A stretch of 59,578 bases of DNA, from positions 1 through 59,578 of the IMG/VR virus record IMGVR_UViG_3300006802_000106; one strand, written 5' to 3'. A program made the translations under genes and the position numbers. The stretch comes from a virus (Duplodnaviria; Caudoviricetes). Each line of letters opens with the position of its first letter. The first letter of the stretch is position 1. Below, piece by piece: positions 21,589-54,456 of the stretch. The notes under the pieces are model-generated. The model saw only the letters and a program-made list of their open reading frames with translations. It was not told the origin of the DNA and ran no database searches.

Positions 21589-21861
21589 TCAGGGGATCGG
21601 CTCAGCGTAATCCCAGTCGTCGGCCAGCAGGTCAGTCTGGCTCGCCAGCCAAGGGACGATCTGACCATCCGCCGTCCGCATGTCGACGTGAGAGTGATAG
21701 CTGATCTCGGTTCCTTCCGGGTAGATGCCCAGAAGCGGCTGACGGTTCACCCTGAAGGTCGATCCGGGCACGAGGAAGACGAACATCCCCTTCCCGTTCC
21801 AACCCCTGCGCGCTATCCGATGGCCCGCCTTGATTTCCAGTAGCGCCTTGCTGAAGTCCAT
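21589..21861 (-). CDS. DUF2829 family protein
   Basis: MDFSKAL..K.G..IARRGWNGKGMF...PWLASQTDLLADDW signature. Confidence 0.9.
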   Translation of the reverse strand: MDFSKALLEIKAGHRIARRGWNGKGMFVFLVPGSTFRVNRQPLLGIYPEGTEISYHSHVDMRTADGQIVPWLASQTDLLADDWDYAEPIP

Positions 21862-22331: not shown

Positions 22332-22494
22332 CGTCTAATGAGGTCAAATTTTAATCTAAAAAATTTTAGAAAAAATGTGTGGGCGACGGTGTAGCGCATG
22401 AGCGGTTCTAGTAATTCCCCCCAAGGGGTGCAGTCGAGGGAAAGAATTCTTTCTAGGGCGGCGGCACCTAGTCTCTCGCGAGCGGCGTCTCAAC

Positions 22495-22513
22495 TTTGTT
22501 ACGACGTAACAAA
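22495..22513. promoter_or_regulatory. early-region dyad, copy 1
   Basis: TTTGTTAC-GAC-GTAACAAA. Confidence 0.85.
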
Positions 22514-22541
22514 ATCCGCACGAATTAAGCGTTATCCATGC

Positions 22542-22570
22542 TTGCATCATGCTCTTATGTGTGAGATTAT
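22542..22570 (+). promoter_or_regulatory. putative promoter of the first early gene
   Basis: TTGCAT-N17-GATTAT. Confidence 0.45.
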
Positions 22571-22630
22571 GTGTGTGGGCGCTTTTGCCCGGGCGGGACC
22601 TATGGGGTCCCATATGAAAGGAACTAGACC

Positions 22631-23347
22631 ATGAACGCGCACACAAGGATCACTGTTGACGCCGCCGCCAAGATTCTGGATACCGTCGTGAACGGTGCGA
22701 AGGCTGACAAGACGGCGGAGCTGCTCGACAATATTCGCAGCATGGCTGGCACGCTGGCTAAAGCGGACCGCACCAATGGCAGGGCCGCTGTCGACGCTGG
22801 CAACGCCATCAAAGCGGCGGGCGGAGACACGGCGGAGAACAAGCGCGCTTTCCAGCTCGCCTACATCTCCTCCTATCTGAGCATCCGCGACAACGCCAAG
22901 GTGACGGCCGCCGACATTCTGGCCAGCGCTGGTCACGGCCGCAAACTCTCGAAAAAGCAGACGCGGGCTCGGACCGAGACGGAAGAACTCGCGTACGGCG
23001 CGTGCCGAACCGCCTACCATCGCGCGCTCAAGGCGGCGGGACTGATCGAACCGAAGGAACGCGGCGCACGCGCCGAAGGCAACGCCAAGGGCGAAGGCGA
23101 AGGCGAAGGCGAAGGCGAAGGCGACAAGGTGACTGTCACCAATCCCGGCGACGCTGGCCACGATGAACCATGGACGCGGGAACGGCTGGAAAGCTACATT
23201 CGCGGGCAGGCTGTCGCGCTCCGCCAGACACTCAACAAGCGTATGGCGGAAACAGGTGGTTGCCACGCGGAACTGGCGGCGGCGGTCATGGCGTTTGCGG
23301 ATCGCGTCGACCATGCCGACGAAGCGCTTGAGGCGCAGTACAAGTAA
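22631..23347 (+). CDS. first early gene, hypothetical helical protein with an (EG)n linker
   Basis: GAAAGGA RBS; own promoter and terminator. Confidence 0.8.
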   Translation: MNAHTRITVDAAAKILDTVVNGAKADKTAELLDNIRSMAGTLAKADRTNGRAAVDAGNAIKAAGGDTAENKRAFQLAYISSYLSIRDNAKVTAADILASAGHGRKLSKKQTRARTETEELAYGACRTAYHRALKAAGLIEPKERGARAEGNAKGEGEGEGEGEGDKVTVTNPGDAGHDEPWTRERLESYIRGQAVALRQTLNKRMAETGGCHAELAAAVMAFADRVDHADEALEAQYK

Positions 23348-23377
23348 TCCGCGCCAACATTCCGACCTAAGCCTACG

Positions 23378-23410
23378 ACGCCCGCCCTAACCCGGCGGGC
23401 GTTTTCTTTT
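23378..23410 (+). terminator. rho-independent terminator
   Basis: Stem ACGCCCGCC/GGCGGGCGT followed by TTTCTTTT. Confidence 0.85.
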
Positions 23411-23424
23411 GCCCGCCGCACAGC

Positions 23425-23443
23425 TTTGTTACCCGGTAACAAA
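23425..23443. promoter_or_regulatory. early-region dyad, copy 2
   Basis: (GC)TTTGTTAC-CCG-GTAACAAA(GC). Confidence 0.85.
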
Positions 23444-24205
23444 GCGTGGTAGTAGTTCGGTCAGTCAGTCGGCTCGCTCAGGTGTGAGGCGTGGTAGTAG
23501 TTCGGTCGGTCAGTCAGGGCGCGTCAGGCAGTCTGGCATGGTTCGTGCATATGCGCCGCGTGACAGTAGTCGGGTCGGTCAGTCGGGTAGCACGCGTCAA
23601 TCATCGTCTAACATGGGCGGAAATTTGAATGTGGTAATACGGTGCCACATCCTACCACTAGGCAGGCTAAGTCATTGATTTCTTAGGGCACTATCCAAAT
23701 CATTTCTGACGGTTTTCGGCGTTTGGCCTACCAAGTGGTGTGTAAGTCATTGAAACTAAAGGCACTAGTCCATTTAGTCCATTTAGTCCATTCCAAAATA
23801 TATATATATAAGGGCGATTTTTTCGGATTAACCTCTAATGTTCGCGAGATTTGATTGCCTTCCGACCGCCGCGCCCGCCATATGGGAGTGTATGTTGTTT
23901 TTTCGAGTGGCCTTTTTGGACTAGTGGCAATGATTTCAAGCACTTAGCGCCCGAAAAGTGGCCTATTCGAGTGGCCTTTTTGGCCTACTCACGACGCAAA
24001 AGTGGCCTATTCCACCCATCAAATTCTCGACCGCATTAGACGTTAACACCAAAACACCCGCATCAGCTGGTCAATCGCGCCCGAGCGCCGCGCCACCCGC
24101 GCCTGCAAAGTGGCCTTCCCGGCACAATCAACCTCTAACGTCGTGGAAGTTTGTTACCGGGTAACAAAGTCAGCTGGAATGACCTCTAACGACGTGGAAG
24201 TTTAG
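23444..24205. repeat. non-coding multi-repeat block (candidate origin or genome-end region)
   Basis: GCGTGGTAGTAGTTCGGTC x2 (23444, 23489); TAGTCCATT x3 (23766-23792); (TA)n at ~23798-23810; AGTGGCCT x5 (23906, 23957, 23970, 24001, 24109); ACCTCTAACG(T/A)CGTGGAAGTTT x2 (24131, 24182); TAAGTCATTGA x2. Confidence 0.85.
24150..24168. promoter_or_regulatory. early-region dyad, copy 3
   Basis: TTTGTTAC-CGG-GTAACAAA. Confidence 0.85.
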
Positions 24206-24252
24206 CCCGCTATCTGACAGGTGTGCGTGGCAGTAGTGCCGGCTGGGTCGCC

Positions 24253-24281
24253 TTGACTTAGTGACCTGTATATGCGACCAT
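24253..24281 (+). promoter_or_regulatory. early promoter, class A
   Basis: TTGACT-TAGTGACCTGTATATGC-GACCAT; spacer shared with 28270 and 31889. Confidence 0.7.
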
Positions 24282-24320
24282 AATAATTGGGGCCAGAGGA
24301 CCGTCTCCGGCCTCCCGGAC

Positions 24321-24339
24321 TTTGTTACCGGGTAACAAA
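24321..24339. promoter_or_regulatory. early-region dyad, copy 4
   Basis: TTTGTTAC-CGG-GTAACAAA in the leader before the RBS of 24372. Confidence 0.85.
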
Positions 24340-24371
24340 ATCGGGCAACAAAAACTGAAAGGATCGGTACC

Positions 24372-24668
24372 ATGGAAAGGATCACGGGAACTCTCGATCG
24401 CAGGCAGCTAAACGTGGCCGTCCTGACGATCGCCAACCGTCTCATGCCTTGCGGCTGGGACGTGGGTGTGGACGCGCCGTCCACCTACGAGGAACTGGTC
24501 GAGCACTACGAGACCACCGGGCGCATCAAGGTGTGGGACGGTGCGAGCGATCGGACCATCTACGACGACGACGGCGATCACGAGTGGGGCGACGACAGCC
24601 CGTGCCGGTGCCACAACTGTGGCTGGCAGGGCAAGGTCGCCCAGACCAAACTGAAGGGAGCTATGTGA
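24372..24668 (+). CDS. early hypothetical protein with a C-terminal CxCxxC motif
   Basis: GAAAGGA RBS; ORF track. Confidence 0.7.
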   Translation: MERITGTLDRRQLNVAVLTIANRLMPCGWDVGVDAPSTYEELVEHYETTGRIKVWDGASDRTIYDDDGDHEWGDDSPCRCHNCGWQGKVAQTKLKGAM

Positions 24669-24703
24669 TGCCCCTCAGCACAAAACACGAAAGGAACAGG
24701 GTC

Positions 24704-25087
24704 ATGACCACGGTAATCAACAGGATCGCGACGCTGGTCGTCGCACGACAGAACTGCCTCGCTTCCGGCAACGACGAGTGGCTGGAGCGGCACACCGTCG
24801 GGCTGGAGCGGATCGTGCGCGAGCATCTCCCGAGCGGCTCCGGGTTCGACGCGGGCACGAGCATCGACAAGGTTCGGTCGCGCCGGGACCGGATCGTGTT
24901 CCGCACGTCCTTTCACCACATGGACGAGAACGGCCACTATGATGGCTGGACCGAGCACGACGTGGTCGTGACGCCGGCGTTCGACGGGTTCGACCTGCGC
25001 GTCACCGGCCGCGATCGGAACGGGATCAAGGACTACATCGGCGACGTGTTCCACGAGGCGCTGAGCGCCGACATCCGGGAGAGCTGA
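24704..25087 (+). CDS. conserved phage early protein (LPSGSGFDAG motif)
   Basis: GAAAGGA RBS before ATG 24704. Confidence 0.75.
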   Translation: MTTVINRIATLVVARQNCLASGNDEWLERHTVGLERIVREHLPSGSGFDAGTSIDKVRSRRDRIVFRTSFHHMDENGHYDGWTEHDVVVTPAFDGFDLRVTGRDRNGIKDYIGDVFHEALSADIRES

Positions 25088-25088
25088 C

Positions 25089-25334
25089 ATGGCCCGCTAC
25101 ATTTACGAGTACGATGTGAAGCTGTTCCTGTCGATCCGGGTCGAGGCCGACCGTCGTGGCGACGCCGACGGCGCAGTGCAGGATATCATCGACGCCATGG
25201 AGGGCGACCAGAACTTCCTCGACGGCTTCAACGAGAAGGCCGCGCCGGTGCGCGTGGTCTACACGTCGCTGGAGCGGGACGAGACCGACGAGGACTTCAT
25301 CGAGCGCCGCCCGGTGGGCGAGAGGGACGAGTGA
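25089..25334 (+). CDS. acidic early hypothetical protein
   Basis: GGAG RBS; operon packing. Confidence 0.7.
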   Translation: MARYIYEYDVKLFLSIRVEADRRGDADGAVQDIIDAMEGDQNFLDGFNEKAAPVRVVYTSLERDETDEDFIERRPVGERDE

Positions 25335-25353
25335 TGCCCGCAACCGACCCGGC

Positions 25354-25372
25354 TTTGTGACCGGGTCACAAA
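25354..25372. promoter_or_regulatory. early-region dyad, copy 5 (G/C variant); extra half-site at 25411
   Basis: TTTGTGAC-CGG-GTCACAAA; TAC-CCG-GTCACAAA at 25405-25418. Confidence 0.85.
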
Positions 25373-25435
25373 ATGATCAGGGAACTCTGCCGCTGGGGCA
25401 GGAGTACCCGGTCACAAACACACAGGAGTGAGAGA

Positions 25436-25855
25436 ATGAACAAGAACCACATTTTGCGAGTGGCGGACGCCATCGAGCAGCGCACCATCGAGAACCTTGG
25501 GTTCAACATGGCGGTCACTTTCGCCCGGTACGACGGCCAGTACGCCGACCAGTCGGGGCACGACTGTGGCACGATCGCCTGCATCGCCGGGTGGTCGGTC
25601 GCCTTCCGCGAGCAGGACCGGTACGGAGAGGTGAGCGTCTCCCGGATGGCCGCCACGCTAGAGGAGTATGGTGGCAACGTGCTCGACGACGCGCGGGTCT
25701 GGCTCGGTCTGGACACGGATCGCGCCGACGCACTGTTCTACGGCCGGCATCACCCGTCCGGCAGCATCAACAGCATCTCCGTCTCCGAGGCCGTCCGGAC
25801 CCTGCGCCACCTCGCCGAGACCGGTAAGGTCGACTGGGAGGCGTGCCGTGATTGA
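25436..25855 (+). CDS. early hypothetical protein (CGTIACIAGW motif)
   Basis: AGGAG RBS; motif familiar from phage hypothetical proteins. Confidence 0.75.
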   Translation: MNKNHILRVADAIEQRTIENLGFNMAVTFARYDGQYADQSGHDCGTIACIAGWSVAFREQDRYGEVSVSRMAATLEEYGGNVLDDARVWLGLDTDRADALFYGRHHPSGSINSISVSEAVRTLRHLAETGKVDWEACRD

Positions 25856-26117
25856 GACGCTGTATGGTCCCGGAGGGATCGCGCTGGTGCTCGACAGCGG
25901 CCAGATATTCCCGGATGACCCCGGTCAGGGGACGCCGGCCATCGTCGAGTACGACCACGACGAGCGCACGTACACCAGCACGTTCTGGGCCGCCTTAGGT
26001 GAGGGGGAGCTGCTCGACAAGCGCGGCGAACCCTACGACCTGAGTGCGCGTCAGCACAACTGGCTGCTAGCACAGGAGAGCGCGGTCAGCGAGTTTCTCA
26101 ACAGGCACGGAGGCTGA
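25848..26117 (+). CDS. early hypothetical protein
   Basis: GGAGG RBS and GTG at 25848 overlapping the upstream gene. Confidence 0.65.
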   Translation: MIETLYGPGGIALVLDSGQIFPDDPGQGTPAIVEYDHDERTYTSTFWAALGEGELLDKRGEPYDLSARQHNWLLAQESAVSEFLNRHGG

Positions 26118-26118
26118 C

Positions 26119-26262
26119 ATGCGCCGCAACCGCTGGCACAGCAAAGACTACTACCTAACGCCCAAGGAGCCGTGGTGGTCGGCCGTCCTCGCATTCATTG
26201 GCATGGCCGTGTTCATCGGCGCTGTCATCATCCTGTCCGCCGCTGTGGTGGGCACCAACTAG
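26119..26262 (+). CDS. 47-aa single-TM membrane peptide (not in ORF track)
   Basis: GGAGG RBS; MRRNRWHSKDYYLTPKEPWWSAVLAFIGMAVFIGAVIILSAAVVGTN*. Confidence 0.65.
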   Translation: MRRNRWHSKDYYLTPKEPWWSAVLAFIGMAVFIGAVIILSAAVVGTN

Positions 26263-26272
26263 GACCCTCGAT

Positions 26273-26292
26273 CTTGTGACCACGGTCACAAA
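26273..26292. promoter_or_regulatory. early-region dyad, copy 6 (4-nt spacer)
   Basis: CTTGTGAC-CACG-GTCACAAA. Confidence 0.8.
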
Positions 26293-26333
26293 CCCCGCCG
26301 CCCAGCGCGGCACCAACTGAAAGGACCAAGAGA

Positions 26334-26444
26334 ATGAGCACGATCACGATGACGCAGTGCAAAAGCGGGAGCTGGAAGGTTCTCCGCAACGGCAAGCCGA
26401 TCAGCTACCACCTGTTACGCGAAGCACGGCGGGAGGTGGTGTGA
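26334..26444 (+). CDS. 36-aa early peptide
   Basis: GAAAGGA RBS; TGATG coupling to the next gene. Confidence 0.5.
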   Translation: MSTITMTQCKSGSWKVLRNGKPISYHLLREARREVV

Positions 26445-26722
26445 TGGGCACCGAAGTGATTTACGTCCCGGTCAAGGCCAAGTGTCCTGATGGTAGGGTG
26501 CGGACGGTGCGGGCTCGGGCTACCATCTACGGCGGCCTCTACCCCGACACGGCGTTCACGGTGCCGGCCTACGCCAAGGCGAAGGGCAAGACGGTCGGCG
26601 GGTTCATCACGCCTGCCGATGGGCTGGGCTGGGTGCAGGACCACGCACCGGGGCTGGAGTTCCGCGCGGTCAAGACCGGCCGGAACTACGGTGTGTTCGC
26701 GAAGGAGCAGGGCGATGCCTGA
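26444..26722 (+). CDS. early hypothetical protein
   Basis: GGAGG RBS; ATG 26444 (MGTEVIYVPV...). Confidence 0.7.
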   Translation: MGTEVIYVPVKAKCPDGRVRTVRARATIYGGLYPDTAFTVPAYAKAKGKTVGGFITPADGLGWVQDHAPGLEFRAVKTGRNYGVFAKEQGDA

Positions 26723-27374
26723 GATACGAGAGATTACCGTCTACCAGTTCGACGAGCTGTCGGACCGAGCGAAAGAGCGCGCCCGGGACTGGTACCGCGA
26801 AGCGTCGGTCAACGACGACTGGTGGGACAGCGTCTACGAGGACTTCACCACTATCGCGTGGCTGCTGGGCGTCGAGATCGACACTCGCGCCGTCAATCTG
26901 ATGAACGGCAAAACCCGTCAGGAGCCGGCGATCTATTTCGATCTCTATTGCCGGAGCGTCGAGTACAAGGGCACGTGGTCGTGGCCGGTCGACCCGGTGA
27001 CGGCGATCGCCGGGTACGCATCACAGGACGAGGAGCTGAAGCGGATCGCCGAGGAGATCGTCGTGGCCCGCGCCCGGTTCGTCATGCGCTACGGTCTCGA
27101 CGGTGCCAACCTGATCGCGGGCCGGATCGACGACGCCAAGTGCGAGATCGACACGGGGGACCTGCACGACCTTCTGAACGGTGACGACCCGGACGAGGAG
27201 GTCGAGGTCCCGGACAAGCTGGTCGACCCGCTCGCCGAGGCGATCACCGACCTCGGTCACTGGCTGCTCAAGCAGCTCGACGCCGAGTACGCGTACGTCT
27301 ACAGCGCTGAGTACATCGACGAGAACATTCGGATCAACGAGTACGAGTTCGACGAGGACGGCGAGCTGGCTTGA
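26715..27374 (+). CDS. acidic conserved phage/plasmid protein (TVYQFDELSDRAKERARDWY family)
   Basis: AAGGAG RBS; recognisable N-terminal motif and INEYEFDEDG C-terminus. Confidence 0.75.
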   Translation: MPEIREITVYQFDELSDRAKERARDWYREASVNDDWWDSVYEDFTTIAWLLGVEIDTRAVNLMNGKTRQEPAIYFDLYCRSVEYKGTWSWPVDPVTAIAGYASQDEELKRIAEEIVVARARFVMRYGLDGANLIAGRIDDAKCEIDTGDLHDLLNGDDPDEEVEVPDKLVDPLAEAITDLGHWLLKQLDAEYAYVYSAEYIDENIRINEYEFDEDGELA

Positions 27375-27382
27375 GGATCAAC

Positions 27383-27401
27383 CCTGTTACGGAGTGACGA
27401 A
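27383..27401. promoter_or_regulatory. degenerate early-region dyad
   Basis: CCTGTTAC-GGA-GTGACGAA immediately before ATG 27403. Confidence 0.45.
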
Positions 27402-27402
27402 A

Positions 27403-27795
27403 ATGGAACCGCATGACTTCAACGACGGCTCCGGGCTGGTCCCGGCGCATCGACACTCAAATGGCGGTGGGTGGGTGGCAGACACCGCTTTTGTCGAGGC
27501 AGGTGTCTTTGTTGGGCTAGACGCCCGGGTCTCCGGCAACGCTCAGGTCTTCGGCAACGCTCAGGTCTTCGGCGACGCTCGGGTCTTCGGTGTCATGCGA
27601 TCGGACGGCTACGCGTTTGTCGCCCTGCCGTGCTCTGACGGGCAGGCGCGCGTCATCGCCGGGTGCCGCTACTTCACGTTCCCGGAAGCACGAAAACACT
27701 GGAGGCATCGGGCCGGAACCGATCTGGGGGCCGAGACGGACCTGATCCTCGACTTCCTTGAGAAGTCGGTCGCGCTCAATGGGTACGGCGGATGA
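27403..27795 (+). CDS. hexapeptide-repeat (left-handed beta-helix) protein
   Basis: DARVSG NAQVFG NAQVFG DARVFG repeats; C-terminal IAGCRYFT..EA..HW. Confidence 0.75.
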   Translation: MEPHDFNDGSGLVPAHRHSNGGGWVADTAFVEAGVFVGLDARVSGNAQVFGNAQVFGDARVFGVMRSDGYAFVALPCSDGQARVIAGCRYFTFPEARKHWRHRAGTDLGAETDLILDFLEKSVALNGYGG

Positions 27796-28187
27796 TCGAC
27801 CCAATAATCAGAGCCCGGTTCGAGCACTTGCTGGAGGCGGGCGGCTTGGAGGGACTGTGTCTCGTCAACCTGCGCCGCCGTACGGACGGTCGGCTGGTGC
27901 CGGTCGTGTGCGCGCTGATGCCGGTCGCCGAGGATCAGGACGGCAACATCGAGCTGGTGCCGCTGGCCCAGATGATCGTCGGGGAGCCGAGGCTTCTCTA
28001 CGAGCCGCCGCCCGTGCGCTACATGCTGCAGCACTACGTCGGTCAGCGGTGGGAGCCGTTCGACACGTACGACACGTTCCAGCAGGCGAAAGAAGCCCTC
28101 AAGGCCGAGGGCGACGTCAACCGGGCGGTCGGCGCCGACGGCCTCATCTGGTGGCGGATCAGCCCCATGGTGGGGGACGAGGAGTGA
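27792..28187 (+). CDS. early hypothetical protein
   Basis: ATGA coupling; ORF track. Confidence 0.65.
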   Translation: MIDPIIRARFEHLLEAGGLEGLCLVNLRRRTDGRLVPVVCALMPVAEDQDGNIELVPLAQMIVGEPRLLYEPPPVRYMLQHYVGQRWEPFDTYDTFQQAKEALKAEGDVNRAVGADGLIWWRISPMVGDEE

Positions 28188-28199
28188 CTACTACCACGC

Positions 28200-28218
28200 T
28201 TTGTTACCCGGTAACAAA
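28200..28218. promoter_or_regulatory. early-region dyad, copy 7
   Basis: TTTGTTAC-CCG-GTAACAAA. Confidence 0.85.
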
Positions 28219-28269
28219 GTCTGAGGTATGATGCGTTGCTGGCGGACCGGCTGTAACTGGCTGGTACGC

Positions 28270-28298
28270 TTGACTTAGTCACCTGTATGAGGCAACAT
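28270..28298 (+). promoter_or_regulatory. early promoter, class A
   Basis: TTGACT-TAGTCACCTGTATGAGG-CAACAT. Confidence 0.7.
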
Positions 28299-28329
28299 AC
28301 ACTTACTGAAACCGAAGAAAGGAACTGAA

Positions 28330-28782
28330 ATGTCTGAGATTTTGAGTGTCGCAGTCAAGAACATCCTGTCCCTGTTCGACGAGCATGTATTCGAGTTCGG
28401 GCCGGACGATCAGGCCAAGGTCGAGCGCTGCCTGTCCGAGCTGCGCGCCGGCCTTGAGCCGGACAAGACCCTGAGCCACTACGTGGTGATCGGCTACAAC
28501 GGCTGGGTGAAGCGCGAGACGCTCTGGGAGGCGCTGACCGCCCACATCGTCGAGTACGGTCAGGGCAGCTTCTACGGCTATCGCGAAAAGGACGCCGTGA
28601 TCCACGTGCGCCGGACCAGCGCGGACGCCTTCATGGACGACTTCGGGACGCTTTACGCCCACGCCATGGAGAAGACGCCGGACATCACCGTCCCGGTGAA
28701 GGTCCACAAGGCGATCGTCGACGCCAAGGACGATCTGGACGAGGTGATCTGGGCGCACGAGGAGAGCACTGATGTCGAGTAA
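28330..28782 (+). CDS. early hypothetical protein
   Basis: GAAAGGA RBS. Confidence 0.75.
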   Translation: MSEILSVAVKNILSLFDEHVFEFGPDDQAKVERCLSELRAGLEPDKTLSHYVVIGYNGWVKRETLWEALTAHIVEYGQGSFYGYREKDAVIHVRRTSADAFMDDFGTLYAHAMEKTPDITVPVKVHKAIVDAKDDLDEVIWAHEESTDVE

Positions 28783-29092
28783 CCTGATAACTGACACCGT
28801 CGTGGCTTATGACGCGCAGTTTCGAGACGGTGGGTGGAACCACCACAAGACCTGCTCGTCCATGTTCGAGGCGGAACGCGAGATCAAGAAAGGTAAGGCC
28901 GACCTGAAACGGCACGGCATGGGCTCCACGTGGCGCATCGTGCCGGTCTACCACCCCGGCCGTCTGATCGACGCCCTGAAGGCGATCACCTTCGCGGCCG
29001 AGAGCGCTGCCAACCTGCGCGGGCTGACCGAGCTGTACCCTTACATCGAGCAGGCCAAGGCCGCGCTTGAAGCGTTCAAGGAGATCGAGTGA
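28772..29092 (+). CDS. early hypothetical protein
   Basis: GAGGAG RBS; overlaps upstream gene. Confidence 0.7.
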   Translation: MSSNLITDTVVAYDAQFRDGGWNHHKTCSSMFEAEREIKKGKADLKRHGMGSTWRIVPVYHPGRLIDALKAITFAAESAANLRGLTELYPYIEQAKAALEAFKEIE

Positions 29093-29367
29093 TGGCTGAC
29101 GATTTCCGCATGACCGTGACCCTCAGCACGCTGCGGGACGGCGACACCATCATCGGTCACCGGGTCGCGCTGAAGCTGCCCGGTCGGGCCATCTTGCCGA
29201 TGGACTTCGGCCCGAAGTCAGGCGCACTGGCGAACGCCTACGCCCACGGCATCGAGACGGGGTGGAACTACATGCGCGAACATTTGTCGATGAACCACCC
29301 GAAGACGGCGCTCCTTGAGGCGCGTGACTTCGACGCGGACGGCGCCGACCTGCGCGGTCAGGAATAG
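29089..29367 (+). CDS. early hypothetical protein
   Basis: AAGGAG RBS; coupled start. Confidence 0.7.
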   Translation: MMADDFRMTVTLSTLRDGDTIIGHRVALKLPGRAILPMDFGPKSGALANAYAHGIETGWNYMREHLSMNHPKTALLEARDFDADGADLRGQE

Positions 29368-29375
29368 CAACCAAC

Positions 29376-29394
29376 TTTGTGACCAAGTCACAAA
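29376..29394. promoter_or_regulatory. early-region dyad, copy 8
   Basis: TTTGTGAC-CAA-GTCACAAA followed by ACACGAAAGGA RBS. Confidence 0.85.
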
Positions 29395-29412
29395 ACACGA
29401 AAGGACTGAACC

Positions 29413-29661
29413 ATGACAAAAAAGGATTACGAGCTGATCGCCGCAGCGATCAAGGACAATCGGGAGTACGACCCGATGGAGTGCTACGCTGAGGCATTGG
29501 ACGACGTCGCGCGTAGCCTCGCGACCGCCTTGCAGCGCGACAACCCCCGGTTCGACCGGGACCGGTTCCTCAAGGCGTGCGGGGTGGACGCCGAGAACAT
29601 CCTCCACAATCTGGCGCAGGACCGGGAGAACATGCTCCGCTGGCAGGAGAAGTCGAAATGA
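29413..29661 (+). CDS. conserved small phage protein (MTKKDYELIA...DNPRFDRDRFLKAC)
   Basis: Recognisable motif; strong RBS. Confidence 0.8.
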   Translation: MTKKDYELIAAAIKDNREYDPMECYAEALDDVARSLATALQRDNPRFDRDRFLKACGVDAENILHNLAQDRENMLRWQEKSK

Positions 29662-29936
29662 CCCGCACGATCCTCAACCGCACCGAACGGTTCACCCTCC
29701 TGTCGTGGGGGCACGGCACCGCCTACGGTCTGTCACGTCTTGAGGCCGGCGTTCCGGTCGAGAGCGTATTCGTGCAGGGCGACGACGCCACCGTGTTCGA
29801 CATGGAGTTCCGGGCGATGGAGGCCCAGTTCCCCGAGCGGGACACCGACGACATTCTCGGCTGGCTCTGGTCGAGCTACAACGAACTGGCGACGCCTGTC
29901 ATCGTTACGGCGCGTCAGGTATGGGAGATCAACTGA
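29658..29936 (+). CDS. early hypothetical protein
   Basis: ATGA coupling at 29658. Confidence 0.7.
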   Translation: MTRTILNRTERFTLLSWGHGTAYGLSRLEAGVPVESVFVQGDDATVFDMEFRAMEAQFPERDTDDILGWLWSSYNELATPVIVTARQVWEIN

Positions 29937-30142
29937 TGTCTAGATATACGGTTCAAATCATCAAGCCGGTCAGTGACTATTTGCGCGGCTGGGTAAACGT
30001 CGAGGCTGCGAGCGAGGATGAGGCGTTGGACAAGGTACAGGACATGGACCTAGACGACGTTGAGTTCGAGTTCTGGTGCTGTGGTGACAGCGTCGAGGAG
30101 ATGTCCTTCGACGTCATACATAAGGACGAGACTGATGCCTGA
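29936..30142 (+). CDS. small acidic early protein
   Basis: TGATG coupling; VNVEAASEDEAL motif. Confidence 0.65.
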   Translation: MSRYTVQIIKPVSDYLRGWVNVEAASEDEALDKVQDMDLDDVEFEFWCCGDSVEEMSFDVIHKDETDA

Positions 30143-30623
30143 GTTCATTCTGGACCGGGGGACCCCGGAGAGCGCGGCGCTGTTTGCCGAACTCGACCCG
30201 TTCACCCAAGCCTACATCGAGGCGGCGTTCTGGACGGAGTGCGAGCCGGGGACATGTCACGGCGAGGACGGCAACGGCGAGCCGTGGAACCCGGACTACC
30301 ACTCATCGCTTCCCGGTGACGTGACGTTCGCCGACCTACACCCGGAGACGCTGGCGCAGATGGTCAAGGACTGCGACGAGTTCATGCACTCCGCCGCATG
30401 GCTGGATGCCTGCGCTTCGCTTGACAGTCTCGACCCGGACCTCGACGGCGGGACGGATAGCGCTCAGGGCGGTCACGACTTCTGGCTGACCCGCAACGGC
30501 CACGGAGCCGGGTTCTGGGATGGTGACTGGCCCGAGCCCTACGCAGCCCGACTTAACGAGACGGCCCACAGCTTCGGCGAGTTCGACCTATGGCTCGGCG
30601 ACGACGGGAAAATCTACAACTAA
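30135..30623 (+). CDS. conserved acidic phage protein (GHDFWLTRNGHGAGFWD motif)
   Basis: Recognisable motif; ATG 30135. Confidence 0.8.
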   Translation: MPEFILDRGTPESAALFAELDPFTQAYIEAAFWTECEPGTCHGEDGNGEPWNPDYHSSLPGDVTFADLHPETLAQMVKDCDEFMHSAAWLDACASLDSLDPDLDGGTDSAQGGHDFWLTRNGHGAGFWDGDWPEPYAARLNETAHSFGEFDLWLGDDGKIYN

Positions 30624-30706
30624 CTACTACCCAAAAGGACTGAACATGCAGAACGCAGCACTCGTCAAGACCCTCTCTCATGCCCAAGCGGTCAGGGGGC
30701 GCTGAC

Positions 30707-30934
30707 ATGCCCGCCAAGCGCAAGAGCTGGTACGTCGCCGTCAAGGTCGTGGCGGACGTGCCGATCACCGAGGCACAGGCCCGTCACATGCTCAAGTGGG
30801 ACACCAGCCTGACCTACGAGGAGCACTGGCCGGACCATCGCAACCCGGCCGGATGCACCCGGTTCAAGACCCCGGTCGTGGCGTCGCTGAAAGCTGGCGC
30901 CAAGGCCAACGCCAAACCACCCCTGATCCGATAA
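30707..30934 (+). CDS. small basic hypothetical protein
   Basis: AGGGGG RBS; ATG 30707. Confidence 0.55.
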   Translation: MPAKRKSWYVAVKVVADVPITEAQARHMLKWDTSLTYEEHWPDHRNPAGCTRFKTPVVASLKAGAKANAKPPLIR

Positions 30935-30944
30935 GGAGACAAAC

Positions 30945-31457
30945 ATGAGACTGACCAACGACATTCGCCGGACCATCCGCCGTGCGGTCGAGGCGGACCT
31001 GCAGCTGACCAGCTCGCTGCGGGACCAGATGCTGGCCCGGACCATGGAGCTTGCCATCGAGCGGCTCCCTCGCTTGGTGCGGCAAGTCTGGAACGACCCG
31101 AAGCTGCGTGGCTACATCAACACCGAGATCGTATGGGGCGAGGACATCGAGGGTGTCTACTACCTGCCGGCACCGGGCGGCGATCCGGACCTGAGAGATG
31201 TCCTTCGGGAGGACGAGACGTACCAGAAGCTGCACTCGCAGTTCGAAGTGATCGAGAAGGTCGCATCCGACGCACTGGACGTTCTTGCCGCGACGCTACG
31301 CAGCGTCACCACGGTCGAGCAGCTGGCCGAGCGGTATCCGGACCTCGTCAAGTACCTGCCCACGCAGGAGCAGGCGGCAGCAAACCTGCCGGCGACGACC
31401 GACCTGATGGACAAGCTCCGCGCGGCGGGGCTGCGGACCGAGGAGACCAAGCCATGA
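30945..31457 (+). CDS. Nmad5-like (nucleotide-modification-associated domain 5) protein
   Basis: MRLTNDIRRTI... and ...SVTTVEQLAERYPDLVKYLP...NLPA pattern. Confidence 0.7.
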   Translation: MRLTNDIRRTIRRAVEADLQLTSSLRDQMLARTMELAIERLPRLVRQVWNDPKLRGYINTEIVWGEDIEGVYYLPAPGGDPDLRDVLREDETYQKLHSQFEVIEKVASDALDVLAATLRSVTTVEQLAERYPDLVKYLPTQEQAAANLPATTDLMDKLRAAGLRTEETKP

Positions 31458-31849
31458 ACCGGCTCAGCAAGGCCGAGCTAAAGCGGATCGTTGACCTCGC
31501 CACGCAGGCGGACGCTTTCCGGACGGAGATCGAGCAGAAGCTGGCGGACTTCCGGGCCGACAATTATCGGCTGATCGAGAAGCTCGACGAGGTTCGCGCC
31601 GAGTTCTACGGCGTCATGGAGGACCTCGCGAACGAGGCCGAGGCGTACTATGACGAGCGATCCGACCGCTGGCAGGCCAGCGATACCGGCGACGCGTATA
31701 ACAGCTGGATGTCCCGGCTGGAGGAAGTGCGCGACAAGGCGGACATGGAAATCACCTTCGCCGACTTCTCGCTGGACCCGGATGCAGACGTCACCGAGTT
31801 CGACTTCATCGCCGAGGGGCTTGACCCCGACTTCGCCGAGCCGGAGTGA
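31454..31849 (+). CDS. acidic helical hypothetical protein
   Basis: GAGGAG RBS; ATGA coupling. Confidence 0.75.
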   Translation: MNRLSKAELKRIVDLATQADAFRTEIEQKLADFRADNYRLIEKLDEVRAEFYGVMEDLANEAEAYYDERSDRWQASDTGDAYNSWMSRLEEVRDKADMEITFADFSLDPDADVTEFDFIAEGLDPDFAEPE

Positions 31850-31857
31850 TCCGGGCT

Positions 31858-31873
31858 TGTTCCACGTGAAACA
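31858..31873. promoter_or_regulatory. parS: parS-consensus palindrome
   Basis: TGTTCCACGTGAAACA matches TGTTNCACGTGAAACA; intergenic. Confidence 0.75.
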
Positions 31874-31888
31874 TACAGGTCTGAGACC

Positions 31889-31917
31889 TTGACATAGTGA
31901 CCTGTATGCAGTAACCT
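31889..31917 (+). promoter_or_regulatory. early promoter, class A
   Basis: TTGACA-TAGTGACCTGTATGCAG-TAACCT; -35 bracketed by the inverted repeat CATACAGGTC (31872)/GACCTGTATG (31899). Confidence 0.75.
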
Positions 31918-31942
31918 ATACACACTGAAGATTGGCACCACC

Positions 31943-31962
31943 TTTGTGACCGAGGTCACAAA
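31943..31962. promoter_or_regulatory. early-region dyad, copy 9 (4-nt spacer)
   Basis: TTTGTGAC-CGAG-GTCACAAA followed by ACACGAAAGGA. Confidence 0.85.
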
Positions 31963-31981
31963 ACACGAAAGGACCAACGAC

Positions 31982-35366: not shown

Positions 35367-35566
35367 TGCCGCGCTTCACATTCACCATGCGCCAGATCGT
35401 CGAGATCGAGATCGAGGCCGCCGATCAGGAAGCTGCGGCGCGGGCCGTCGAGAAGTTCTCGGTCGACTACCGGGACAACCTCGACAGCCTGCCCGCCGTG
35501 TTGAAGGCGGACGTCAGGATGGGGCTGTCCGCTCCGAAGGAGATGACCAATGCGACCGACCATTGA
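35363..35566 (+). CDS. hypothetical protein
   Basis: Coupled start. Confidence 0.6.
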   Translation: MMPRFTFTMRQIVEIEIEAADQEAAARAVEKFSVDYRDNLDSLPAVLKADVRMGLSAPKEMTNATDH

Positions 35567-35831
35567 GCAGATGACGCAGGAAGTCCACGAGCGGACCCGG
35601 CGGATCGAGACCCAGCTCTACCGGGTGGCCGAGGCGATTGGCCTCAGTCCACCCGGGTCCAAGCCTGTCTGGACGCCCTACCGGGTGGACATCCCGACCC
35701 CAAGCGTGTCGCTCAAGGACATCCTCGCCGTCATACCGGAGAGCGTACTCGACGGCCCGGCTCGGACGATCGGCATCTGGATCGCCGACACCAGACTGAC
35801 CAGTATCAACGTGGGCCGAGCGGCCACATAA
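35550..35831 (+). CDS. hypothetical protein
   Basis: AAGGAG RBS. Confidence 0.65.
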   Translation: MRPTIEQMTQEVHERTRRIETQLYRVAEAIGLSPPGSKPVWTPYRVDIPTPSVSLKDILAVIPESVLDGPARTIGIWIADTRLTSINVGRAAT

Positions 35832-36612: not shown

Positions 36613-36909
36613 GTGACACAAGTCCACAACGACATCCCTATCCCGCGCAAGACCATCCCGAACCGATCCCGATGGAAATTCCCCTACGCCACCATGAACG
36701 TGGGGGACAGCTTCTTCCAGCCGTGCCCTACCAAGTCGAGGCGAGGGTCTATCAGCACCCACACGTCCGAGACCGCCCGGAACCTTGGACGCAGGTTCGT
36801 CACCCGGTCCTGCTGGGTGAAGCCGGGCAAGGCCGACGGCGACTGGGTAGCGGCGGAGAAGGGTGAGAAGGGCGCAGTGGCGGGTGTCGGCGTCTGGAGA
36901 ACCGAATGA
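36613..36909 (+). CDS. small putative DNA-binding protein (DIPIP...MNVGDSF...VWR), paralog of 44307
   Basis: Motif shared with 44307..44549. Confidence 0.7.
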   Translation: MTQVHNDIPIPRKTIPNRSRWKFPYATMNVGDSFFQPCPTKSRRGSISTHTSETARNLGRRFVTRSCWVKPGKADGDWVAAEKGEKGAVAGVGVWRTE

Positions 36910-37295
36910 CGGGAAACTACGCCGAGGAGTACACTGCCGGCCGCAAGGACGACGCGGACAAGCCGCGTACCGATTTGATCGACAGCTACGCCATGACGGA
37001 GCTGGCCAAGGTGCTGACCTTCGGCGCGCAGAAGTATGCGCCGCACAACTGGCGCAGCGGGATCAACGTCTCACGTCTGATCGCAGCGGCCAGCCGACAT
37101 CTTCTAGCACTGAACGCCGGTGAGGATGTCGACGAAGAAACCGGCCTGTCGCACGCGGCGCACGCCATGTGTTGCTGCATGTTCCTCGTCTGGACGCTGA
37201 AGTACAAGCCGGAGTACGATGACCGCTGGAGACCGGAACCGGATTACGATCAGTCGATGCGCGAGTTCTTTGAGTTGGAGTTTCCACAGACATGA
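36906..37295 (+). CDS. dATP/dGTP diphosphohydrolase-like (DUF5664) protein
   Basis: GRKDDADKPR.DLI...VLTFGAQKYAPHNWRSG...RHL...D.ETGLSH.AHA.CC. Confidence 0.85.
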   Translation: MTGNYAEEYTAGRKDDADKPRTDLIDSYAMTELAKVLTFGAQKYAPHNWRSGINVSRLIAAASRHLLALNAGEDVDEETGLSHAAHAMCCCMFLVWTLKYKPEYDDRWRPEPDYDQSMREFFELEFPQT

Positions 37296-38243: not shown

Positions 38244-40213
38244 ATGATGCTGCAGTGGGACGATACCCGCGTGCGCGCCATGGACTGCGAGACTTCAGGG
38301 GTCAAACCTGAGTACGCTCTGCAGCCGTGGCGACACACCAAGGGCGAGATGTGGATCACCAGCTTCGTCCACCTGATCAAGGAGGGCGGCAAGTTCCGCG
38401 ACATCGGAGGGCTCGGTCTTCCGCTGGAGCGGCCGTCCGACGACCACGTCAAGAAGATGATCGCCGAGTTCTTTCGGGAGGTCGAGGAGAACGACCAGTA
38501 CGTGGTGGGGTGGAACCTCGCCTACGACGCGGCGGTGATGATCGCCTACGGGTTCGAGGAGGAGGTGTTCCGCACCAAGTGGCTTGACGGCATGCTGCTC
38601 TGGCGCCATTGGTTCATCGAGCCGGAGTACGACAAGGACCGGGGCAAGAAGAAACCCTACGGTCTGAAGGATTGTTTCGCCGAACTACTACCAGAGCTGC
38701 CGGCCTACAACGACGACATCGACTTCCACGACCCGGACCCGGCGGTCCGGCAAAGGCTCCACCGCTACAACGTGCGGGACAGCAAGGCGGCCTTCGGCTT
38801 CGCCCGCCACTGGTTCAAGTTGTTGCAGGAGTACCCTCAAAGGCTCAAGGCAGCGCTGATCGAGGCCGAGTGCATTCCGTTTATCGCGCAGGCCAACCTG
38901 CGTGGCATCCCCGTGGATACGCTCTATGCCAAGGAGCTGTCGGGGTGCAGAAGCTGCTCGCTGCCCAGAAGCTGGCGGTACTGGCTCCGGATGGGATCAC
39001 CGAGAAGATCGTCCGCTCACCGATCCAGCTGGCCAAGGTGCTGTACGACGACTGGAAGCTGCCGGTCTACGCCTACAATCCGCTGACCGAGACCCAGAAG
39101 AAGAAGGGGATGATTGAGGGCAACCGGTCGACAGACAAGGAGGCGCTCCATGAGCTGTCGTTCGTCGACCCCCGAGCCAAGCTGATCCACGAGTATCGAG
39201 GAGCACTGAACCAAGACACCAAGTTCGCCAAGGCGCCGCTGATCTCGGCCGAGTACAACGAGGATGGCCGGGTCCACCCGACGGCGATGATCTTCTCGAC
39301 CTACAGTGGTCGGATGACCTACGCGTCCGCTCAAACTGTCAGGTCTGACAAGGAGCGCGGGATCAAGGCGGCGTCCTACCCGATCGGGTTTGCGCTGCAT
39401 CAGGAGAAGCGCGAGAAGCACTTCCGCAACATCCTGATCGCGCCGCCCGGGTATGATCTGGTCGAGTTCGACGCCGCCGGTCAGGAGTTCCGGTGGATGG
39501 CCGAGGCGTCCGGTGACAAGACCATGAAGGAGCTGTGCGAGCCGGGTGAGGACCCGCACTCGTTCATGGGCGCCAGCATCGTCGAGCGTGACTATCGGGA
39601 GCTGATCCGGCTGTTCCACGAAGACGAGGAGCGAGCCGTTCAGGACCGCTATCTCGGGAAGTTCGCGAACCTCAGCTGCCAGTACCGGACGGGGAAGAAG
39701 AAGCTGCGGGCCAAGGCGCGTGTCGACTACGACATTCCGCTCGACGAAATGTCGGCGGCGCGGGTCCATACGAAGTACCAGCAGACCTATCCGGGCGTTC
39801 CGCGCTACTGGAAGACCGAGATCGCCAAGGTGCGCCGCCAAGGCTATCAGGAGACCTTCGCCGGCCGGCGTGTGCAGGTCGTCGGGAACTGGGACGGCGA
39901 GTGGGGCTGGTCGATGGGCTCCACTGCGATCAACTACAAAATTCAGGGCACCGGCGGCGACCAGAAGTATCTGGCGTTCAAGTGCATCAAGAACGTGGCC
40001 CGGAAGTACGGCGCGATCTTCGCGTGGGACCTGCATGACGGCCTGTACTGGTTCGTCCCGAGCGACAAGTCTCTGGCGTTCGCCGCCGAGGTGAAGGGCA
40101 TTCTGGACAACCTCCCATACCGTGAGGCTTGGGACTACGTGCCATCCGTGCCGATGCCGTGGGACTGCAAGATGGGCCGCATCTGGGGCGCAATGAAAGA
40201 GCCGACCTTCTAA
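38244..40213 (+). CDS. polA: family A DNA polymerase with 3'-5' exonuclease, interrupted by a -1 frameshift near 38942-38945
   Basis: Exo I DCETSG, Exo II GWNLAYD, Exo III YNVRDS in ORF 38244; motif A FDAAGQEFRWMA, motif B RYLGKFANLSCQY, motif C LHDGL in ORF 38609. Confidence 0.9.
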
Positions 40214-40540: not shown

Positions 40541-40822
40541 ATGCCCAGCAGCCCGAACTACAAGCGTGACTACCAGCAGGAAATGAAGACCGCCGAGACT
40601 CGTGGAGAACGAGGCGGACCCAACAGCGGTAAAGCGAAGCGTGCCCGTGCCCGCCGGAAGGCACTGAAGCTGGGCATGGTCCGCAAGGGGCAGGACCTCG
40701 ACCACAAGAAGCCGATTTCCAAGGGCGGCTCCAATGCCGTCTCGAACCTCCGGGCGACAACGCCATCCGCGAACCGGTCGTTCCCCCGCAACAAGGATGG
40801 CAGCATGAAGTCGAACACATGA
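40541..40822 (+). CDS. small HNH endonuclease-like protein
   Basis: DLDHKKPISKGGSNAVSNLR....ANR. Confidence 0.8.
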   Translation: MPSSPNYKRDYQQEMKTAETRGERGGPNSGKAKRARARRKALKLGMVRKGQDLDHKKPISKGGSNAVSNLRATTPSANRSFPRNKDGSMKSNT

Positions 40823-42545: not shown

Positions 42546-42577
42546 TTGACAGGCACGTCATAATGTCGTATTATGAC
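42546..42577 (+). promoter_or_regulatory. near-consensus sigma70 promoter with overlapping operator
   Basis: TTGACA-N17-TATTAT; dyad GTCATAAT-N5-ATTATGAC (42557-42577). Confidence 0.8.
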
Positions 42578-42620
42578 AGAATTGACAATCAGGCCAATGG
42601 CCATATCTGAGGAGGATAAG

Positions 42621-42884
42621 ATGACCGTTTTGAAACTGCCGCCACGTTTCTGGGGTGACCACTACGAGCGTTGCGCCGGAAACCCGGGCAAGCGCCGCGA
42701 AGTGAAAGTCGCCAAGGGGTATGTGGTTGTCGAATTGGACGCGGATGCGCTGGAGGACTTGGTGTCGGATGCCGAGTACTACGGCGGCGATTTCGCGCCG
42801 GACTGGAGCGGTGGCGGCGGGATCAGGGCGTCTGCCCGCGCCACGATCCGCGCACTTGAGAGGCAGGGCGTTGTCGCCAACTGA
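42621..42884 (+). CDS. hypothetical protein, partner of the HTH gene
   Basis: GAGGAGG RBS before ATG 42621. Confidence 0.75.
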   Translation: MTVLKLPPRFWGDHYERCAGNPGKRREVKVAKGYVVVELDADALEDLVSDAEYYGGDFAPDWSGGGGIRASARATIRALERQGVVAN

Positions 42885-43065
42885 AATCAGAGGCATTAGG
42901 CGCAGGCTGGGGTTATCGCAGACCCAGCTTTCCGCTTACCTAGGGATCGCCAGTGCGCGCACGGTGCAGCGGTGGGAGTCCGGCGATGTTCCAATCACCG
43001 GGCCTGCCGCTCGCTGCCTGCAATACATGGCCCTGCATGGGCTGATGGACGATGACCATGTTTGA
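42871..43065 (+). CDS. XRE/Cro-type helix-turn-helix protein
   Basis: EIRGIRRRLGLSQTQLSAYLG..SARTVQRWESG..PI.GP; TTG start. Confidence 0.85.
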   Translation: MSPTEIRGIRRRLGLSQTQLSAYLGIASARTVQRWESGDVPITGPAARCLQYMALHGLMDDDHV

Positions 43066-54437: not shown

Positions 54438-54456
54438 GATCGGTCCTCGCTCGTGG

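Follow-up and report, generated by a model that had tools for sequence, protein, structure and literature searches.

A family of short palindromic dyads in the early-gene region of an uncultured freshwater phage, with lineage-specific counterparts in its relatives

Palindromes that are private to a phage and located beside its early genes have been reported before in a few mycobacteriophage clusters. Phages of Cluster O contain a 17-bp palindrome, 5'-TGTTCGGNNNCCGAACA, present in 34 invariant copies in phage Corndog (PMC4351075). This repeat is enriched in the intergenic gaps of the non-structural operon, occurs neither in the host nor in other phages, and some insertions and deletions (indels) are bounded by copies of it; the symmetry of the sites led the authors to suggest dimeric regulators (PMC4351075). 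In Cluster K, translation starts are closely preceded by the “ESAS” elements (extended start-associated sequences), inverted repeats that have a variable spacer and a consensus specific for each subcluster (PMC3203893, PMC12699233), and the “stoperators” of Cluster A are sites at which the bound repressor stops the elongating RNA polymerase (PMC9283540). The same design occurs in an unrelated, uncultured freshwater clade, represented here by the IMG/VR virus record IMGVR_UViG_3300006802_000106 (Duplodnaviria; Caudoviricetes). This linear record of 59,578 bp, with a GC content of about 63% and a CheckV completeness of 94%, was analyzed as a whole and is referred to as the window. It contains a family of dyads of the type TTTGTKAC-N3/4-GTMACAAA in its early-gene region, and these dyads are a real, strongly non-random, clade-wide control element.

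The structural genes of the record, encoding the terminase, a portal-like protein, the major head protein, and a giant protein of 2771 amino acids (aa), are on the minus strand at positions 1-22347 and 52572-59578. The early and replication genes occupy the plus strand at 22631-52116 and encode an AAA ATPase, a DUF2201 metallopeptidase/VWA protein, a DNA polymerase, nucleases, a helicase, and a primase-helicase. Genes were called by ourselves on the basis of open reading frames (ORFs), ribosome-binding sites (RBS) of the GAAAGGA type, and the GC content at third codon positions (GC3), and the promoter assignments are also our own. The strict dyad pattern yielded eight exact copies, at positions 22495, 23425, 24150, 24321, 25354, 28200, 29376, and 31943. 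Relaxing the outermost base to TTGT[T/G]AC-N3/4-GT[A/C]ACAA added the copy at 26273, CTTGTGAC-CACG-GTCACAAA, so that nine clear copies of 19 to 20 bp were obtained. A preliminary description of this DNA, made from the sequence alone, had listed clear copies at exactly these nine positions and had found none elsewhere. Both statements were confirmed: no further copy was present on either strand of the whole record (nine forward, nine reverse), the strict pattern did not occur in 100 dinucleotide shuffles, and a backwards control pattern had no match in the record.

All nine dyads are confined to 9.5 kb between 22.5 and 32 kb. They are intergenic, as had been described, with nine of nine outside the gene calls in a region (22348-31981) that is 20% non-coding, which has a chance probability of about 5e-7. 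The matching of a T>G exchange in the left arm by A>C in the right arm was also reproduced: five copies are of the TTAC/GTAA type, four are of the TGAC/GTCA type, and none is mixed, with a calculated chance of about 0.002 if the arms were independent, although copies in the same genome are not independent of each other and these statistics are accordingly soft. The spacer, 3 nt long in seven copies and 4 nt in two, is not as fully free as had been assumed. In eight of the nine copies its two outer bases complement each other, as C..G in seven and as G..C in the copy at 22495, which means that the palindrome in these eight copies is really one of 9 + 9 bp around a centre of 1 to 2 nt. Two degenerate copies had been proposed in addition. 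The one near 27383 could be recovered as TGTTAC-GGA-GTGACG at 27385-27399, read from the sequence, with the Shine-Dalgarno (SD) sequence in its centre and the ATG at 27403; the one near 25405 was just a lone right arm, GGTCACAAA, at 25410-25418. The repeated leader sequence GTCACAAAACACGAAAGGAC was found again, at 29387 and 31955, and another leader sequence, ACACGAAAGGA, is present in three copies, of which the copy at 24685 is without a dyad. Rfam and tRNA scans of the region gave nothing above threshold. An exact motif scan of IMG/VR returned 72 loci, all on different contigs and with more than one copy only in one unrelated tandem array. This indicates that no other contig possesses this exact dyad family.

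Three settings can be distinguished for the dyads: a position ahead of a promoter or within non-coding DNA (22495, 23425, 24150, and 28200), a position in a 5' leader (24321 and 31943), and one between cistrons (25354, 26273, and 29376), where they are situated 9 to 20 nt past a stop codon and 19 to 64 nt ahead of the next start. In the first setting, the dyad at 22495-22513 (TTAC type, TTTGTTACG-A-CGTAACAAA) is in the divergent region between the late genes on the minus strand and the early genes on the plus strand, and its end is 29 nt away from the −35 site of the first early promoter. The dyad at 23425-23443 (TTAC type) is 13 nt past the intrinsic terminator that follows the first early gene and borders a 1-kb non-coding region, and that at 24150-24168 (TTAC type) is 85 nt upstream of the −35 site at 24253, with flanks forming the direct repeat ACCTCTAACG(T/A)CGTGGAAGTTT. 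The dyad at 28200-28218 (TTAC type) starts 13 nt past the stop codon at 28187 and is 52 nt ahead of the −35 site at 28270. The leader copies are at 24321-24339 (TTAC type), between the promoter at 24253 and the ATG at 24372, and at 31943-31962 (TGAC type, 4-nt spacer), downstream of the promoter at 31889 and in the leader that precedes the ATG at 31982 of the conserved gene for the AAA ATPase. The intercistronic copies are all of the TGAC type. That at 25354-25372 is 20 nt past the stop codon at 25334 and is followed on its 3' side by a GC-rich hairpin and then by the lone right arm at 25410-25418; that at 26273-26291, with a 4-nt spacer and C as outer base, is 11 nt past the stop codon at 26262; and that at 29376-29394 is 9 nt past the stop codon at 29367 and 19 nt ahead of the ATG at 29413. 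Copies upstream of promoters, in leaders, and before RBS thus form the non-random network of cis elements of the early region that had been outlined in the preliminary description.

The ATPase encoded downstream of the dyad at 31943 was used as a probe for relatives. It identified three viral contigs and 20 metagenome loci with 38 to 46% identity, plus one partial locus with 66%; the relatives compared are distant. Six related phage contigs were found to contain, in the corresponding part of the genome, their own family of identical dyads, located like those of the window in the gaps from a stop codon to the following RBS. These are TGCTAC-N5/6-GTAGCA in G002 (12 copies, all within 5.7 to 21.9 kb of a 61-kb contig), GTCAGGG-N-CCCTGAC in L095 (seven copies), GATTAGAT-N-ATCTAATC in L096 (10 copies), TGTGAG-N5/6-CTCACA in L098 (six copies plus degenerate ones), TTGGTAAGAC-N2-GTCTTACCAA in L100 (eight copies), and TTTGTCAG-N5/6-CTCACAAA in G001 (about 13 copies, variants counted). 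The arms are identical inside one genome and unrelated among genomes (e.g., TGCTAC, GTCAGGG, GATTAGAT, and TGGTAAGAC), and the similarity of the flanks among copies ends beyond about 22 bp. This fits a sequence-specific recognition that co-evolves with each phage better than a duplication of larger blocks.

In seven genomes, 55 of 64 copies have an SD-preceded start within 150 nt, five of the 64 are 107 to 130 nt upstream of a start with a promoter in between, and many copies begin 1 to 10 nt past the upstream stop codon. A perfect dyad of at least 7 bp precedes the ATPase gene at 16 of 22 loci, compared to 15% of random 135-nt segments; when duplicate loci of the same phage were removed, about 12 of 18 independent lineages had a dyad in the ATPase leader by our own count. 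Other conserved genes, for the DUF2201/VWA protein and the polymerase, have dyads too, as does that of the ATPase, and canonical TTGACA-17-TATAAT-like promoters are located upstream of the dyad leaders in the relatives. Genes from the ATPase onward have homologues in these relatives. No comparable dyad family was found in Rollin and DES1, two named distant relatives. In the Rollin record (L110), which includes an N run, another long palindrome, AAAAGGTAG-N9-CTACCTTTT, is clustered in four copies near the start, at positions 1-500. The design of the dyads is conserved across an uncultured, podophage-like freshwater clade, and their sequences are lineage-specific.

The dyads may be the recognition sites of a lineage-specific phage factor that controls the early operons and reads the sites as duplex DNA, a reading to which we give a probability of about 40%. 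The early operons would be transcribed by the host RNA polymerase under the control of this phage-encoded factor, a dimeric or two-headed protein binding to the dyads as double-stranded palindromic DNA. Promoter-adjacent copies would be ordinary operators, and copies between a stop codon and the next RBS would be roadblocks in the fashion of stoperators, so that each early translation unit would be shut off or tuned after the early phase. A protein as reader, the duplex as the form that is read, and a repressive effect are the points that we infer. The exactness of the nine palindromes and their restriction to non-coding DNA of the early region speak for such sites, as do the arms, which are uniform in each genome and unrelated among genomes. 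Palindromy down to a centre of 0 to 2 nt was observed in eight of nine copies in the window, seven of seven in L095, 10 of 10 in L096, and also in L101 and L102, and at the ninth position the copy at 22495 has switched from C..G to G..C. A centre of this size cannot be used by a hairpin, which supports duplex recognition. Position 6 of the G001 element is non-complementary in most copies (TTTGTCAG...CTCACAAA), which means that the earlier statement that symmetry is what is conserved does not hold in general, and three copies of this element are flipped (TTTGTGAG...CTGACAAA). Flipping is neutral for duplex binding but alters the RNA, so these copies also favor the duplex. No plus-strand transcript is expected at 22495, upstream of the first promoter, or at 23425, after the terminator; in the relatives, the copy at 4176 of L100 abuts a −35 hexamer and that at 5747 of G002 is 24 nt ahead of one. 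The plus strand is without a G.U signature (A.C about 22 versus G.T about 9 in a hand tally), and the minus strand has the more stable fold in 40 of 64 copies and the plus strand in 16 of 64, an asymmetry mostly due to the outermost, apparently unpaired position. The interpretation by the Cluster O authors of their sites as targets of dimeric regulators was also counted for the duplex.

Several observations weigh against such operators. No cognate DNA-binding factor for the dyads was identified in the ORFs scanned, and Pfam returned no DNA-binding domain for the 22 ORFs tested in the early region, in agreement with the preliminary description, which had seen no obvious cognate regulator inside the region. 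The only helix-turn-helix (HTH) protein in the window has a different palindrome of its own, and HTH proteins are not conserved across the relatives of the clade. The 22 early genes of the window (22631-31849) have no homologues in seven relatives, bar one 47-residue match to G001. The spacer varies by 1 bp in four of seven families, with seven N3 and two N4 copies in the window and ratios of 10/2 in G002, 3/6 in L098, and about 9/4 in G001; a rigid dimer tolerates such a change poorly, while a stem-loop is indifferent to it. The perfect T-A/G-C co-variation in the window is a prediction of base pairing. An SD sequence is within the dyad centre in at least five copies and 37 of 64 copies end 14 to 35 nt ahead of an SD-preceded start, both of which suit a translational role, and the G002 element has an orientation bias, with an A after the left arm in 10 of 12 copies. 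The softness of the within-genome statistics adds to these points.

As a rival explanation, the dyads could act in the early mRNAs as stem-loops of 6 to 9 bp with small loops, closely ahead of the SD sequence or around it, be it as translational operator for a phage RNA-binding protein, as processing sites, or as 5'/3' end protection of the translation units. T4 RegA and the coat-protein operators are precedents for translational operators. The constant geometry between dyad and start, the SD sequences in the stem-loop centres, the variation of spacer length within a family, the orientation bias in G002, and the T-A/G-C co-variation in nine of nine window copies would all fit. By contrast, the promoter −10 site of the relatives can be as near as about 5 nt or as far as about 65 nt from the dyad in the ATPase leader. 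The degenerate copy at 27385-27399 still pairs via two G.U pairs, perfect dyads of at least 7 bp are enriched before the ATPase RBS (16 of 22 loci versus 15% of random segments), and hairpins were predicted to form in five of seven folded leaders. The folding z-scores of these leaders are mostly unremarkable, however, with −0.5 to −1.9 in six of seven, and the complementarity extends to positions that are unable to pair in a loop. G001 keeps a C.C mismatch and has flipped G.G forms, G.U pairs are not in excess over A.C, the minus strand folds better, and several copies are upstream of promoters or past a terminator. The spacing is also tight on the stop-codon side, so that genome compaction could explain the geometry, which weakens the argument for RNA, and no RNA-binding protein for the stem-loops was identified. 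We regard stem-loops as a possible explanation that comes close to the duplex in probability, and lean modestly toward duplex operators, promoter-proximal ones as well as roadblocks within the operons. An extruded cruciform would reconcile the full palindromy with the variable spacers and the co-variation. A fast-evolving phage factor that reads a private palindrome tagging each early translation unit in every member of the clade, and which may read it as such a cruciform, is an unlikely extension. If true, it would be the lytic-phage counterpart of the stoperators, a lineage-specific “self” code by which a phage switches off its own early genes and which could also silence, or ignore, those of co-infecting relatives.

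The remaining explanations concern recombination, transcription initiation at hairpins, and host proteins. The preliminary description had considered the dyads as recombination points, and short-homology linkers for shuffling, deleting, or importing small early-gene cassettes would agree with their position in a hyperplastic region, in which the 22 early genes have next to no homologues in the relatives, with the leader and RBS sequence shared by some copies, and with the dyad at 1714 of L095 that is missing from its close relative L094. Indels bounded by such repeats are reported for the PeSLs (PMC4122927) and for Cluster O (PMC4351075). Between L094 and L095, the only close pair (96 to 98% identical), none of three gene indels ends at a dyad; they end at short repeats at coupled stop/start sites. 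The five orthologous dyads of this pair have kept their arms, and two of them have exchanged just the base in the centre. About 20 bp is also short for homologous exchange, and shuffling would leave one exact sequence per lineage and the dyads at conserved genes unexplained, all of which makes linkers improbable. The dyads could also be extruded from supercoiled DNA as hairpin promoters for an RNA polymerase that is ejected from the virion, as in coliphage N4. Sites that are early-region only and lineage-specific, with short stems and loops of 3 to 4 nt, would agree with this; the template-strand version folds slightly better, and transcription beginning about 10 nt downstream of the centre of the hairpin, according to the N4 rules, would fit the short leader and RBS that follow (PMC4496689). 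The polymerase would be the 2771-aa protein, and the paper on phage StenR_269 guesses such a function for the giant protein of that distant relative (PMC10747016). No polymerase signal was found in the giant protein of the window, however: Pfam matched LPD23 only and PHROGs only families with no assigned function, a comparison with PDB gave no single-sequence match and no profile match below E = 1, and no T7-type motif B or C was present. The AlphaFold2 (AF2) model of residues 1750-2771, with a mean predicted local distance difference test (pLDDT) value of 73.7, is all-helical, has no PDB match at E <= 0.001 and no polymerase match, and resembles C-termini of polyvalent proteins and “internal virion protein D”; a query of the ESM Atlas with residues 330-1749 gave no usable match. 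The region is under the control of canonical sigma-70 promoters, in the window as well as in the relatives, and the loop centre is not a conserved purine: the plus strand has G, C, or A there in the seven single-centre copies of the window, whereas L095 has any of A, T, and C, and L096 has either A or T. A virion polymerase reading the dyads is thus very improbable. Slightly more remote still are landing sites for host CRP/FNR, MatP, or another nucleoid protein on the DNA that enters first. The MatP site matS has the 13-bp consensus GTGACRNYGTCAC, and the CRP/FNR core is TGTGA-N6-TCACA with a fixed 6-bp spacing. Arms rich in AT in a genome with 63% GC and two copies that fit the CRP core, 26275 and 31945, speak for a host protein. 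The fit that had been noted for the CRP family is limited to these two of nine, with N5 spacing or TGTTA/TAACA arms in the others; the likeness to matS did not stand, with no match to GTGACRNYGTCAC in the window and the spacers CGG and CAA instead of RNY in the two TGAC-type N3 copies. The relatives possess unrelated arms at corresponding positions, which would demand a different factor of the same habit in each host, so that a conserved host protein cannot explain the pattern.

Two proteins were considered as reader of the proposed duplex operators. The first early gene (22631-23347) is flanked by dyads on both sides and equipped with a promoter and a terminator of its own, and its product belongs to a small family of 12 proteins. 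The AF2 model of this product (pLDDT 80.6) is all-helical with two domains and had no Foldseek match at E <= 0.001; the best VIA match, with Z 7.3, was a designed helical repeat. An IMG/VR profile search with this gene found no closer relatives. Nothing indicates that the protein binds nucleic acids, and it was rejected. The XRE-type HTH protein encoded at 42721-43065 was rejected as well. Its gene is preceded by a small ORF and by a promoter, TTGACA-17-TATTAT, which is overlapped by the palindrome TCATAAT-GTCGT-ATTATGA at about 42546-42580, and the protein, short and antitoxin-like, has no detectable similarity to the HTH protein of G001 (E = 0.4). TCATAAT-N5-ATTATGA is probably the operator of the HTH gene itself, and 42546-43065 appears to be a self-contained regulatory or toxin-antitoxin-like module that is unrelated to the dyads. 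Conserved small proteins with no assigned function are encoded at 35550-35831, 36613-36909 (DUF7303), and 47504-47920.

The early promoters share a 19-nt block, TTGAC(T/A)TAGT(G/C)ACCTGTAT, that occurs three times (24253, 28270, and 31889) with zero expected. With a 17-nt spacing it provides a −35 site and a weak −10 site, the latter assigned by eye. On the plus strand, the sigma-70-type promoter at 24253-24281 has the block TTGACTTAGTGACCTGTAT and reads TTGACT-17-GACCAT, the second copy at 28270-28298 reads TTGACT-17-CAACAT, and the third at 31889-31917 reads TTGACA-17-TAACCT. The candidate promoter of the first early gene, TTGCAT-17-GATTAT at 22542-22570 on the plus strand, was found by eye, and another sigma-70-like promoter is at 34440. 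The block TTGACWTAGTSACCTGTAT (24253-24271, 28270-28288, and 31889-31907) is far better conserved than required for a sigma-70 promoter, and its spacer contains TTAGTGACC, one mismatch off a dyad half-site. Dyad half-sites as a part of the promoters were considered for TTAGTGACC in the window and for the extended −10 site TGCTAC in G002, but they are absent from L095, L096, and L100. The intrinsic terminator after gene 22631-23347 is at 23377-23412 on the plus strand. The dyads themselves are not intrinsic terminators: none of the nine appeared in a terminator scan, their stems are AT-rich and without a U tract, and the plus-strand bases after the stems are A, G, or C. A GC-rich stem-loop is located at 25388-25413, between the dyad at 25354 and the lone right arm at 25410, and the 106-nt segment that contains it had the only notable folding z-score, −3.16. 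The 1-kb stretch at 23440-24250 has no convincing ORF, two dyads in it or bordering it, direct repeats of at least three families (GCGTGGTAGTAGTTCGGTCRGTCAGTC three times, the AAAGTGGCCT type three to four times, and ACCTCTAACGNCGTGGAAGTTT twice), and an (AT)n tract; the stretch resembles an origin of the iteron type, or else a regulatory or noncoding RNA region.

No integrase or repressor family was found among the ORFs scanned (53 by PHROGs and 32 by Pfam), which is why the phage looks lytic. Its major head protein is 44% identical to the counterpart from Pseudomonas phage Rollin and 35% identical to those from Xanthomonas phage DES1 and Stenotrophomonas phage StenR_269. There was no match to named phages at the nucleotide level, and on this protein comparison the named phages appear to be distant relatives only. 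Freshwater metagenomes contain the DNA of the record, and no RNA data set was listed as containing it. From four freshwater DNA runs, nothing but identical contigs of low depth and a single variant contig was obtained. In the variant contig, from another freshwater run, the dyad at 22495 is unchanged; 12 differing positions and two indels are in the AT-rich sequence 22384-22416 of the divergent control region.

The giant protein (4218-12533, minus strand) has homologues that are polyvalent proteins. It has just one cysteine and includes an LPD23 domain. An HExxH motif near residue 1520 is conserved, as is a C-terminal domain of about 1000 aa, and the protein is probably an ejected polyvalent or ejectosome protein. 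A 90-aa protein encoded at 21589-21861 on the minus strand has a strong Pfam match to Tad2-like proteins (Thoeris anti-defence 2; E = 6e-25), and the relative G002 codes for an Acb2/Tad1 hairpin-domain protein (L081:10265-10489). The N-terminal domain of a dATP/dGTP diphosphohydrolase (36906-37295; E = 4e-35), a dCMP deaminase (43259-43690), and a weak Nmad5 match (30945-31457) hint at a manipulation of the nucleotide pool or at DNA modification. The DNA polymerase at 38244-40213 is encoded by two overlapping ORFs, with the exonuclease part at 38244-39086 and the polymerase part at 38609-40213, and relatives match both. A frameshift, a gene that is split, or an error in the assembly could account for the two ORFs. 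The region 40541-40822 encodes a 93-aa, very basic protein with an isoelectric point of 11.3, which is better conserved (58 to 73% identity) than any other small protein of the clade; by eye, its DHKKP...N...N stretch is HNH-like, with no Pfam match.

The at least seven genomes with alike positions and different sequences of the dyads are a natural experiment, and this makes the reader protein discoverable by matching the sequence of the arms to protein variation. Whether duplex or hairpin is read can be tested directly with synthetic oligonucleotides. If the dyads are roadblock operators, they would show an operon-by-operon shut-off of early genes in a lytic phage that depends on the host RNA polymerase, and would be a source of orthogonal operator/regulator pairs.

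No description of the dyads of this clade turned up in the literature searches made, and the words promoter, palindrome, and hairpin do not occur in the main text of the StenR_269 paper. Calling them undescribed, as in the preliminary description, was nevertheless too strong when the analogues in mycobacteriophages are considered. The “conserved inverted repeats” of phiC31 are said to be another case for comparison. The hairpin promoters of phage N4 share with the dyads short stems, 3-nt loops, restriction to the early region, and phage-specificity (PMC4496689). There are three of them, the purine in the middle of their loop is conserved, and the giant protein of N4 contains a detectable T7-like polymerase; nothing of this kind was seen here. 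The T4-type PeSLs are, like the dyads, repeated and flank small ORFans in hyperplastic early regions, as stem-loop/early-promoter modules (PMC4122927). They combine terminator and promoter motifs and owe their definition to the part they play in indels, whereas most dyads have no adjoining promoter and none of the three indels in the L094/L095 pair had a dyad at its junction.

The stoperators share with the dyads the presence of many copies of one site in the short intergenic gaps of operons. They are asymmetric, and the protein that binds them is the immunity repressor, a monomer, of a temperate phage, whereas the dyads are palindromic and no repressor or integrase family appeared in the scanned ORFs; by this analogy, a roadblock of the stoperator type is the mechanism that we modestly favor for the dyads. 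The ESAS elements are also upstream of translation starts in the non-structural half of the genome and have a sub-lineage-specific consensus, but possess imperfect 17-bp arms with spacers of 4 to 13 bp and are tied to an asymmetric 13-bp element, SAS, in contrast to the exact arms of 8 to 9 bp in the dyads; the only SAS-like element in the window is ACACGAAAGGA with its three copies. The Cluster O repeat, like the dyads, is an invariant short inverted repeat (7 bp in Cluster O, 8 to 9 bp here) around a variable centre (3 bp and 1 to 4 nt, respectively), with many copies in short intergenic gaps of non-structural genes. It differs by having more than 30 copies genome-wide, 11 of them clearly in genes, compared to nine dyads, all intergenic and within 9.5 kb, and by one sequence, different from that of the dyads, being shared by five genomes, whereas each relative here has its own. 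The dyads are thus a variant of a known, functionally unsolved type of element, with the repeats of mycobacteriophage Clusters O, K, and A as the closest analogues.

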